Shown in pieces: positions 3,022 through 5,112 of a DNA stretch of 33,188 nt; position 1 is the stretch's first letter, and every line of letters begins with the position of its first letter. The notes under the pieces were generated by a model. That model did no database searches. It worked only from the letters and a program-made list of their open reading frames with translations, and was not told the DNA's origin. This DNA is from Alphaproteobacteria bacterium (GTDB taxonomy: Bacteria > Pseudomonadota > Alphaproteobacteria > Paracaedibacterales > CAIULA01): the NCBI GenBank assembly GCA_019751935.1, contig JAIEMR010000095.1:1-33188 (forward strand), written 5' to 3'. A program made the position numbers and the translations under genes.

Positions 3022-5112
3022 ATGACTATTATTAAAACCTTTTTTCTATGTATTTTTTTGTTTGGTTTGCATTCAGCTAAAGCCACGGACTTTGAACGGC
3101 TTTGGCAAGAGTATGGTGAAGTGGGGGACTCTCAGCAACGTTTGCATGGTTACCTTGCTGATACCGCTTCTGCAGAGCTTTATAAACCCAATTTTGAAAA
3201 TTTAAGTCCTGAGTTATTCAAAGATTGGCTTAATCCTCTTTTAGTTAATAAAGCAGAAAGACCTGCTTTCAGAGCAAGACACTTATTGGAATTGTTCACA
3301 AACCTGCATGATTCTCCGCTCAGTCTCACTGCAAAAAATCGTTTAAGTGAGATTCAACAGTATTGGATGAGCGGCCAAAACAGATACATGCCTTTGTCTA
3401 ATCGCATCGCTGGGCGTGATGAGCAAAAAGTTATGGTTAATGCGCTAGATCGACGAGTTCAGAGTTTGATTGGTCAGCATTATATTGATGCAACTAGTGA
3501 TCCTGAGGATATTTTTCAAATAATTATTGGAGATTTAGCTGAGGCTTATCTAGGGAAAGCAGCATCATCCGATAATGTAAGGCACAGAAAGCATTATAAG
3601 ATTTGTTATTTGGTTTCAGCATTAATGGTTTTGGAAAAGCTGCTAGGTGGTTCATTAGACACATTACCAAGAGCAAGAGATATTATTTTTGCACGTTTCT
3701 CCGAAAAAGCTGAGGATTCAATAGTTGAAAGAGCAAAAACTTTAATGGGGTTGATAGGCGCTCCTCAAAGTCCCTTTGATTACAAGAACTATATTGAAAG
3801 GAATTTTAGAGTTGGTGTAAGCCTGACCGATGCAGTCCCTATAGGAGTTGTTTCTGGTGGGTCTAGAGCATTAATGCCACGGACTACAGTGACGCCTGCA
3901 CCTCGTAGCGTGGAGTCTCTTGCGTTCACCTTGTCCCATTTAAGGCCTCTTTCTGGAACAGATAAAATAAACAGGGAGAGAAGCGAGGGAATAACCGAGG
4001 AAGAAGTCTTAAAAGAAATGATTAGATTTGCAAAGTCTGGAAATCCAGATGCAGAAAAATGGCTCTTACTCTTTAAAGATGATTATATAAGGCAATATCC
4101 AGGCCTTTTTGTAGCTCCGCCTGTTGTAGTAACGCCTCCTCCTATGCGAACGCCTCCAGCAGTTGTACCTACTGCAACTTTAAAGCCATTTGAGGATCTT
4201 GAACCAGCACTTTCTGATTTTAACGGTCGTTCGGACGCAGAAAGAACTATGTACGAAAGCATGTATGGAATCACTGAACGAGAGGCCATCAGACAAATGA
4301 TCGCCCTTAAAAATGGCGGTGACGGACAAGCAATTAGTTGGGTTGATGCATATGGACGGAATTATAAACCTTTGTATCCAGATTTGTTTGTAGAAGCACC
4401 GATTGCAATGCCAAAACCACCTGTTGTCGCAGTGCCGGTAATAGCTGAGGATGCTAAGAGAAGATTCTTAGTAGATGGGAAAGAACGAACCAGAGAAAGT
4501 CATGCTATAGAAGACGGGCAACAGCTTCTTCTTTATGAAGTTTTAGCCGATGGCAATTGTGGGTTGTATACGCTATCGGTTCGTAGGGAAGCAGGTCATA
4601 CAAAAGTTCAAGGGCTTTTAGGGAAATTAGCTGCTCGAACTTTAGGGACGGCTGATCTACCAGCAAAAATATTGGAGGTTCCAGGAAAAGCAACAGAGGT
4701 TTTACGAGATGCTTCTCAACAATTAAGTTCTAAAGACTATAATGAGCACGTATCTATTCCAACATTACGTGTGCTTGCTTATAGTATGCTTCGTTCTAAT
4801 GTAAAAGTTTGGACAACAGATATAGATCCGTTTTCAGGGCAGGCGGAGTTTGTAGAAGATCTTGCAGATTACAGATGGCAAACAGAAGGATTGCCAACCA
4901 TACACCTTATGTTAAAAGGTGCGCATTACGATCACTTGGTCCCTGCAACTGATGTTATAGAACGGATCAAGGCAAGAGCGGTTGAGGATACTCTGCCCAG
5001 AGCAAGGATATTGGTGCAAGAAGCGTGGGAGGAAGGCACTGAAGAAAGAAAACACATTTTACAACGGCAGGCTGCAGACTTGCAATTTAATGCAGCTACT
5101 CCCTTAGCTTAA
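3022..5112 (+). CDS. Secreted OTU-family cysteine protease (deubiquitinase-like) with two UBA-like modules and Pro-rich linkers
   Basis: Signal peptide MTIIKTFFLCIFLFGLHSAKA/TD. An internal duplication of about 75 aa spans roughly 3970..4200 and 4228..4460; each copy has GITE(E/R)E..., then GN/GD...W, then a PPVVV/KPPVV linker. The C-terminus carries the OTU motifs LADGNCGLY (Cys codon 4558..4560) and GAHYDHLVP (His codons 4924..4926 and 4933..4935). Confidence 0.75.
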   Translation: MTIIKTFFLCIFLFGLHSAKATDFERLWQEYGEVGDSQQRLHGYLADTASAELYKPNFENLSPELFKDWLNPLLVNKAERPAFRARHLLELFTNLHDSPLSLTAKNRLSEIQQYWMSGQNRYMPLSNRIAGRDEQKVMVNALDRRVQSLIGQHYIDATSDPEDIFQIIIGDLAEAYLGKAASSDNVRHRKHYKICYLVSALMVLEKLLGGSLDTLPRARDIIFARFSEKAEDSIVERAKTLMGLIGAPQSPFDYKNYIERNFRVGVSLTDAVPIGVVSGGSRALMPRTTVTPAPRSVESLAFTLSHLRPLSGTDKINRERSEGITEEEVLKEMIRFAKSGNPDAEKWLLLFKDDYIRQYPGLFVAPPVVVTPPPMRTPPAVVPTATLKPFEDLEPALSDFNGRSDAERTMYESMYGITEREAIRQMIALKNGGDGQAISWVDAYGRNYKPLYPDLFVEAPIAMPKPPVVAVPVIAEDAKRRFLVDGKERTRESHAIEDGQQLLLYEVLADGNCGLYTLSVRREAGHTKVQGLLGKLAARTLGTADLPAKILEVPGKATEVLRDASQQLSSKDYNEHVSIPTLRVLAYSMLRSNVKVWTTDIDPFSGQAEFVEDLADYRWQTEGLPTIHLMLKGAHYDHLVPATDVIERIKARAVEDTLPRARILVQEAWEEGTEERKHILQRQAADLQFNAATPLA

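Follow-up and report, generated by a model that had tools for sequence, protein, structure and literature searches.

We describe a gene at positions 3022 to 5112 of the forward strand in a 33,188-nucleotide stretch of alphaproteobacterial DNA (contig JAIEMR010000095.1 of assembly GCA_019751935.1), which is called the window throughout. The reading that we favor, and to which we give about an even chance, is that the gene encodes an exported multidomain protein whose C-terminal part is a divergent OTU-type protease, probably acting on ubiquitin or a ubiquitin-like modifier (Ubl) of a eukaryotic host. In the layout that we propose, a Sec signal peptide and an orphan helical N-terminal domain would be followed by two units, each made of a helical module and a stiff Pro/Val-rich linker, and finally by the protease. 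From its motifs and profile comparisons, we judge it probable that the C-terminal domain adopts an OTU-type fold, and we regard the OTU reading of this domain as moderately supported.

A C-terminal domain resembling OTU cysteine proteases

The gene is a genuine coding sequence, since its frame runs uninterrupted to its own terminator, whereas each of the five other frames contains 27 to 59 stops. Given a G+C content of 41.6%, against 39.8% for the whole window, its composition shows no sign of very recent foreign origin. The features on which the protease assignment depends are the following.

3022..5112, forward strand: complete open reading frame (ORF) of 696 residues plus stop, from the reading-frame and stop count
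4462..4956, forward strand: putative OTU-like cysteine protease domain, residues 481 to 645, from the homologues P0003 and P0005 and from hhalign alignment to OTU domains
4558..4560, forward strand: codon of the putative catalytic Cys513, within D-G-N-C (residues 510 to 513), from the sequence
4924..4932, forward strand: codons of His635, Tyr636 and Asp637, the putative general base, aromatic residue and acidic triad residue, from the sequence
4957..5109, forward strand: C-terminal helical tail, residues 646 to 696, which includes the second DTLPRAR repeat (4987-5006), from AlphaFold2 (AF2) and repeat analysis

The initial annotation had recognized OTU hallmarks in this region, and their positions proved exact: DGNC occupies residues 510 to 513, with the Cys codon at 4558-4560, and the His box GAHYDH begins at residue 633. 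The Cys motif comes first and the His motif second, with Cys513 and His635 lying 122 residues apart, a spacing typical of OTU domains. The canonical OTU triad follows the pattern C...H-aromatic-D/N/E (PMC7396840), and D510-G-N-C513 together with H635-Y636-D637 agrees with this rule. The pair DGNC ... H[YFW][DNE] was found in none of 2335 alphaproteobacterial decoy ORFs.

To find homologues, HMMER was run over all 1.84 billion cluster representatives, which stand for about 15 billion proteins. This search returned four relatives, two of which (P0002 and P0004) are short pseudogene fragments, so that P0003 and P0005 are the only homologues of the protease domain among these representatives. P0003 (603 residues) is built like the query: a signal-like N terminus and a helical domain precede a single module with its Pro-rich stretch, and the Cys/His domain comes last. 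P0005 (295 residues) shows 33% identity across the C-terminal domain. Across the three C-terminal domains, neither Cys513 nor His635 varies. Both homologues lie on bacterial contigs, one adjoining recA and lexA and the other adjoining a GGDEF-EAL gene, and neither matches Pfam. A word-index search recovered the query alone, or P0005 alone when the family profile was used, and contig scans of genomes, metagenomes (two) and viruses yielded zero further family members. More generally, Pfam, NCBIfam and PADLOC provided no informative match for the full protein, its isolated domains or its homologues: against Pfam, the full 696-residue protein gave nothing at E<=1, and the isolated C-terminal domain and modules gave nothing at E<=10.

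Profile-profile alignment links this small family to OTU proteases. The reference set consisted of eight OTU catalytic domains, each above the PF02338 gathering threshold, and included the viral OTU (vOTU) of Crimean-Congo hemorrhagic fever virus (CCHFV), whose sequence matched PDB chain 3znh_A at 100% identity. Aligned with these eight domains by hhalign, the three-member family scored 35.3 (P 8e-5, probability 61%) over 107 colinear columns. Cys fell on Cys and His on His, and the alignment spanned the strand before the Cys loop, an E..LA...I.V block and the His strand. Other OTU seed sets gave P values of 2.9e-4 and 8e-4, the range over all sets being 105 to 124 columns and 24 to 61% probability. 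None of 200 column shuffles (maximum 20.8) and none of 200 block shuffles (maximum 30.0) reached 35.3. Among 330 real alphaproteobacterial ORFs used as decoys, the maximum was 21.9 over at most 36 columns, compared with 33.6 over 124 columns for the query domain alone. In HMMER searches with hidden Markov models (HMMs) built from OTU seeds, the query ranked first of 2338 sequences, yet with just 9.8 bits. Moreover, nairovirus vOTU chains recurred among the weak PDB matches (E about 1.6-1.8).

Several results weigh against the OTU assignment. The initial annotation had proposed an OTU protease and had named PF02338 as the profile to check; its motifs hold and are joined by the colinear alignments (P 8e-5 to 8e-4), but neither PF02338 nor any other Pfam or NCBIfam model matched, even with the isolated domain at E<=10. 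Likewise, PDB sequences gave no significant match in phmmer searches with the protein or in hmmsearch runs with two family profiles. The hhalign probabilities of 24 to 61% fall short of the usual 90% level, and their signal comes mostly from the query, P0005 being marginal (18.8) and P0003 at background (12.1). When the OTU profile was enlarged with 120 database matches, mostly OTU1/YOD1 and OTUD1 orthologues, only the His box aligned, a weaker result that we attribute to subfamily bias. Both homologues depart from the canonical motifs: the second residue past the His is Ser (H-F-S) instead of Asp, Asn or Glu, and the Cys loops read NGDC or GGIC, without the Asp of DGNC. Structure prediction was of low confidence, with AF2 predicted local distance difference test (pLDDT) values of about 45 for the protease domain alone (alignment of 3 sequences) and 25 to 55 within the full-length protein (5 sequences); His635 falls in a predicted strand of this model, and the Cys region is undefined. 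A Foldseek search against the PDB returned matches at E>0.2 only, none of them an OTU, and these matches are meaningless.

Alternatively, the domain could be a different, undescribed cysteine peptidase of the periplasm or cell envelope, for instance a peptidoglycan or lipoprotein-linkage hydrolase, whose resemblance to OTU domains arose by convergence or chance. Envelope-spanning proteins typically have signal peptides and Pro-rich spacers, the OTU HMM match is not significant, both homologues are without the DGNC Asp and without an acidic residue in the triad, and the structural model is uninformative. However, NlpC/P60, CHAP, YkuD and other peptidase or cell-wall hydrolase profiles of Pfam found no match even at E<=10, and the Cys-His spacing, the three colinear OTU-like blocks and an hhalign score clearly above shuffles and decoys all point toward OTU. 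In addition, sister lineages can do without the gene and are losing it (see below), which would be unusual for an envelope housekeeping enzyme. We see a slim chance for this explanation.

Possible substrate and role

As an OTU-type enzyme, the domain would be a papain-like protease of clan CA with the canonical order Cys513 ... His635-Tyr-Asp637. Its Cys513, His635 and Asp637 would hydrolyze (iso)peptide bonds, with ubiquitin or a Ubl of a eukaryotic host as the most likely substrate. Export would proceed through Sec, with the type II secretion system (T2SS), vesicles or lysis as candidate onward routes, and the helical modules on their stiff Pro/Val spacers, together with the N-terminal domain, may supply targeting or substrate binding. 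A host-effector role for the protein is plausible. Two points speak against such a role: a Sec signal peptide alone takes a protein to the periplasm only, and we saw neither host association nor a secretion system for host delivery. The neighborhood of the gene contains no E1, E2 or Ubl genes of a Bil/Bub-type operon, and the defense models of PADLOC found zero matches in the gene or its neighbors.

The evidence for the fold would serve equally well for an OTU-fold protease directed elsewhere than at host ubiquitin, either a secreted toxin that cuts the proteins of rival bacteria or an auto-processing peptidase that frees parts of its own chain. Zhang et al. proposed rival-toxin and auto-processing roles for the OTU-like domains of free-living bacteria (PMC3482391), which allows such functions for some bacterial OTU-like peptidases; the T2SS-delivered OTU toxins of Odyssella resemble polymorphic toxins (PMC3482391), and the host association of the source organism is unproven. 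Toxins of this kind would nevertheless be expected to carry signs that we did not find. No immunity-gene candidate lies downstream on the same strand. The gene is followed by a conserved GST gene in convergent orientation, which is also kept in relatives without the insertion described below. Pfam recognized none of the toxin-trafficking N-terminal domains (RHS, WXG, LXG, PAAR, hemagglutinin repeats) in the protein, and PADLOC returned nothing. On balance, this alternative appears unlikely, and an OTU-type protease acting on a host modifier is the reading that we retain.

Duplicated helical modules ahead of the putative protease domain

Upstream of the putative protease, the protein contains two related helical modules, each followed by a linker.

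3910..4107, forward strand: helical module 1, residues 297 to 362, four predicted helices, from AF2 (pLDDT 62-76) and the duplication
4108..4176, forward strand: Pro/Val-rich linker 1, residues 363 to 385, 61% Pro+Val
4183..4389, forward strand: helical module 2, residues 388 to 456, four predicted helices and a YPDLF tail, from AF2 (pLDDT 76-86)
4390..4440, forward strand: Pro/Val-rich linker 2, residues 457 to 473, 59% Pro+Val

The internal duplication and the two linkers reported in the initial annotation were both borne out: residues 304 to 385 align without gaps to residues 397 to 478 at 30% identity over 82 residues (pairwise E 7e-14), and Pro plus Val make up about three-fifths of each linker. 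AF2 predicts helices at residues 297-307, 312-322, 326-338 and 342-358 of module 1 and at residues 390-400, 405-415, 419-431 and 435-448 of module 2. Each module is thus predicted to comprise four helices across about 60 to 65 residues, then a conserved YP(D/G)LF tail, with pLDDT values of 62 to 86. Corresponding motifs are EGITEEE, beginning at residue 322, and MYGITERE, beginning at residue 414. Module 2 is also related to P0003, with 44% identity over query residues 367 to 465, which include part of linker 1, and 46% over residues 388 to 458.

The UBA and CUE domains are compact three-helix bundles of about 40 residues. Their ubiquitin-binding surface includes a hydrophobic loop (MGF/MGY in UBA; MFP with a di-Leu in CUE) that contacts Ile44 of ubiquitin. 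The modules had been described as tracking the UBA/CUE consensus, in a eukaryote-style UBA-UBA-OTU layout, and the comparison supported neither proposal. Scanned alone against Pfam at E<=10, the three module copies gave no UBA, CUE or UBA-like match, although all seven genuine UBA-like sequences used as positive controls matched UBA-type families, five of the seven above the gathering threshold. Alignment of the modules to UBA seeds by hhalign covered 2 columns, with a score of 14.5 that lies within the shuffle range (maximum 17.6). The MGF-type loop is present in one of three copies, with MYG in module 2 against SEG in module 1 and IYQ in the module of P0003, and four helices over about 65 residues are predicted instead of three. 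The assignment of the modules to UBA or CUE is accordingly unsupported. Each module may still contain a UBA-like three-helix core with one extra helix, although this drew no support from any test run.

What could still be said for genuine UBA/CUE bundles is that, in module 2, M-Y-G precedes two helices in a UBA-like register, that the AF2 models show compact helical units (pLDDT as high as 86), that P0003 also has a module and a Pro-rich stretch ahead of its protease, as would befit an accessory substrate-binding role, and that separate ubiquitin-binding regions are used by EmcB and human OTUs (PMC12501173). Set against the failed profile searches and the missing loop, these features leave a UBA-UBA-OTU protein very improbable.

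The order module, linker, protease is found in the query and in P0003, the counterpart in P0005 being weak and non-significant. This arrangement fits an accessory role, in binding or spacing, that may be coupled to the protease. A more speculative possibility, which we think quite unlikely, is that the four-helix modules represent an undescribed class of domains that bind ubiquitin, a Ubl or a host target and so set the specificity of a Sec-exported OTU family that escapes recognition in sequence databases. Alternatively, and covered by the same judgment, an enzyme with the OTU fold would cleave an isopeptide substrate other than ubiquitin in the bacterial envelope and would thus operate outside a ubiquitin setting.

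Signal peptide-like segment and orphan N-terminal domain

The N-terminal part of the protein comprises the following features.

3022..3084, forward strand: Sec-type signal-peptide-like segment, residues 1 to 21 (MTIIKTFFLCIFLFGLHSAKA, putative cleavage between AKA and T), from sequence inspection
3085..3909, forward strand: N-terminal all-helical domain with no assigned function, residues 22 to 296, from low-confidence AF2 secondary structure
3658..3677, forward strand: first DTLPRAR-encoding repeat copy, residues 213 to 219 (repeat family D1)

Signal peptides cleaved by signal peptidase I combine a positively charged n-region, a hydrophobic h-region of 7 to 15 residues and small residues at positions -3 and -1. 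As judged by inspection, the N terminus (MTIIKTFFLCIFLFGLHSAKA followed by TD) has all three, and the description of the protein as bearing a signal peptide is upheld at that level. Its short n-region contains a single Lys (Lys5), its h-region TFFLCIFLFGL (residues 6 to 16) is the most hydrophobic 11-mer of the whole protein, and an A-K-A motif precedes Thr22. No lipobox was seen in this segment, which is 78% identical in the relative L085.

The domain that follows (residues 22 to 296) has no match in Pfam, NCBIfam or PADLOC, and apart from the pseudogene fragments P0002 and P0004 it has no relatives. A tentative kinship with the product of the neighboring gene (family 1), raised in the initial annotation from the shared motifs RLW.., PLS.R.. 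and E.KVMVN., was rejected: these motifs reflect no significant relationship, BLASTP gave E 0.63 in an unrelated region of the protein, and hhalign gave P 0.057 with a probability of 1%.

A lineage-specific insertion and decay of the gene in sister lineages

The gene lies within a segment that is variable among close relatives.

661..5095: lineage-specific insertion of about 4.4 kb with the family-1 gene and the gene described here, from comparison with L086-L094
701..2746, reverse strand: family-1 gene, divergent neighbor, from its ORF
2747..3021: AT-rich divergent intergenic region, common to both genes, from consensus matches only

The insertion sits between an ABC ATPase gene and a GST gene. 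In L086-L094, which belong to a more widespread relative (GlmU 89% and ThyX 93% identical to those of the window), the GST gene directly adjoins the ABC ATPase gene, and tblastn found no match for the gene or for its family-1 neighbor. The flanks of the insertion contain no repeats of at least 10 nucleotides, no tRNA and no mobile-element signature. Within the intergenic region, promoter-like sites at 2869-2898 and 2922-2949 are consensus matches only, and no obvious Shine-Dalgarno sequence precedes the gene.

In two other close relatives, the gene is present as a remnant. L084 (GCA_019749935.1) is syntenic, with housekeeping proteins 89 to 96% identical, and its orthologue has in-frame stops upstream and a deletion of residues ~205 to 655; the C-terminal tail retains 64% identity to this remnant. 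The two DTLPRAR-encoding segments form an imperfect 20-nucleotide direct repeat of 75% identity at 3658-3677 and 4987-5006 (residues 213 to 219 and 656 to 662). Since the L084 junction fuses the two copies and has lost everything between them, the deletion may have been repeat mediated, as the sequences suggest. The L085 orthologue keeps the signal-peptide region and is then frameshifted and truncated near residue 114. The gene is therefore an accessory gene that is being lost in sister lineages: L084 and L085 have it as a pseudogene, and L086-L094 lack it. Such turnover is typical of effector genes. That the gene is already non-functional in the window as well, decaying behind an intact ORF like its counterparts in these close relatives, is highly doubtful, given a frame open across 696 codons where the other frames are riddled with stops, and catalytic motifs that are the most canonical of the family.

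Other features of the window

The neighbors of the gene are the orphan secreted protein of family 1, GST, the ABC ATPase and thyX, and the window also carries glmU, pepA, cydA, secB, recR, tamB and dapD/E. The 3' end of the gene overlaps the convergent GST gene (5096..5716, reverse strand) by 17 nucleotides (5096..5112), and in relatives without the insertion, the 3' end of the GST gene instead shares about 21 nucleotides with the ABC ATPase gene. Between GST and thyX, at 5891..6601 on the forward strand, lies a 236-residue ORF that encodes a signal peptide and several Cys residues and could be assigned to no family. It is 82% identical in L084 and absent from L086-L094, where GST directly follows thyX, and looks like a second small accessory insertion.

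The family-1 gene has a paralogue at 10414..11910 on the reverse strand (29% identity over 477 residues, E 1e-44) and a 76%-identical orthologue in L085. Both family-1 ORFs have signal-peptide-like N termini and no match in Pfam, NCBIfam or PADLOC. A second orphan signal-peptide family is encoded at 9091..9993 (reverse strand) and 16361..17146 (forward strand), with about 31% identity (E 1e-22); in relatives, its members form a tandem pair adjoining glmU (L086 6326-7246 and 7393-8319). Because the window holds these two further orphan signal-peptide families, it suggests a sizeable secreted accessory repertoire.

Two other ORFs, both on the forward strand, deserve mention. One, at 27596..29359, encodes a 587-residue AAA+ ATPase (AAA, AAA_2 and ClpB D2-small domains) whose N terminus consists of a hydrophobic, signal-peptide-like segment and then a Gly/Pro-rich stretch, which is unusual for a cytoplasmic chaperone-type ATPase. 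The other, at 18728..19186, encodes 152 residues with a weak match to the abortive-infection family AbiTii (26.7 bits versus a Pfam threshold of 27.6). As for the source organism, an uncultured alphaproteobacterium, its GlmU has a best match of 46% identity among GTDB species representatives, in unclassified Alphaproteobacteria, and several metagenomes hold contigs with 89 to 96% identical housekeeping proteins. The lineage seems to be widespread in metagenomes and poorly represented among reference genomes.

Comparison with known systems

Bacterial OTU deubiquitinases (DUBs) are well established and include ChlaOTU, LotA-D, wMelOTU, RickOTU, BurkOTU, EschOTU and the permuted EmcB family (PMC7396840, PMC7690952, PMC12501173). 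The protein described here resembles wMelOTU, wPipOTU, RickOTU, BurkOTU and ChlaOTU (Schubert et al. 2020, PMC7396840) in placing the Cys before the His-aromatic-Asp motif and in its D-G-N-C loop. It also shares with these canonical-topology enzymes a proteobacterial origin, the standing of a candidate host-directed accessory protein and a comparable size of the OTU core. It differs from them in lacking significant sequence or HMM similarity to them or to PF02338 and in its unique N-terminal domain and duplicated helical modules. Export also differs, a Sec signal peptide being present here, whereas the candidates in that study were screened for type III/IV secretion signals (PMC7396840).

For Odyssella thessalonicensis, an alphaproteobacterial amoeba symbiont, Zhang et al. 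2012 (PMC3482391) reported OTU peptidase toxins with signal peptides and T2SS delivery, next to C-terminal OTU effectors in Amoebophilus, Waddlia and Wolbachia. A protein that joins a signal peptide to an OTU domain consequently has precedents. Our protein would similarly be exported, and it has several domains, a putative OTU-like peptidase at the C terminus and an alphaproteobacterial origin. However, no sequence relationship to the Odyssella or endosymbiont OTUs was detected, and the gene comes with neither an immunity gene nor a polymorphic-toxin trafficking domain.

In profile-profile comparison, the best partners were the nairovirus vOTU (CCHFV L protein residues 1-169) and the eukaryotic OTUD and OTUB proteins. 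Three colinear blocks match, namely the Cys loop, the E..LA...I.V strand region and the h-x-L-h-h...H-Y/F-D strand. The likeness is confined to motifs and profiles, with 17 to 18% identity in aligned columns, and the surrounding domains differ. The EmcB/CoxDUB family of the Legionellales (PMC12501173) and EschOTU are bacterial DUBs of OTU descent in which the protease domain is joined to a separate ubiquitin-binding region. In both, however, the fold is circularly permuted, with the His before the Cys, whereas Cys513 precedes His635 here (PMC12501173, PMC7396840). The modules are comparable to UBA and CUE domains (PF00627, PF02845) as small helical units beside a putative DUB domain, with a partial M-Y-G...helix...helix pattern in module 2, but they differ in having no profile similarity, four predicted helices over about 65 residues and a loop that is not conserved.

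Taken on its sequence features, the family would be new: it has three members that escape current profile libraries, its duplicated four-helix module is apparently novel, and the lineage that carries it is poorly sampled. As a class of host-manipulating effectors, bacterial OTU deubiquitinases are well known and still growing in number; this family, if confirmed, would extend the class with an export signal that is unusual and with a further type of accessory module. If the protein is an active ubiquitin protease, it would further provide indirect evidence that the source lineage lives with eukaryotic hosts. Finally, the intact, pseudogene and absent states of the gene across sister genomes constitute a natural series in which the turnover of a candidate effector can be followed.

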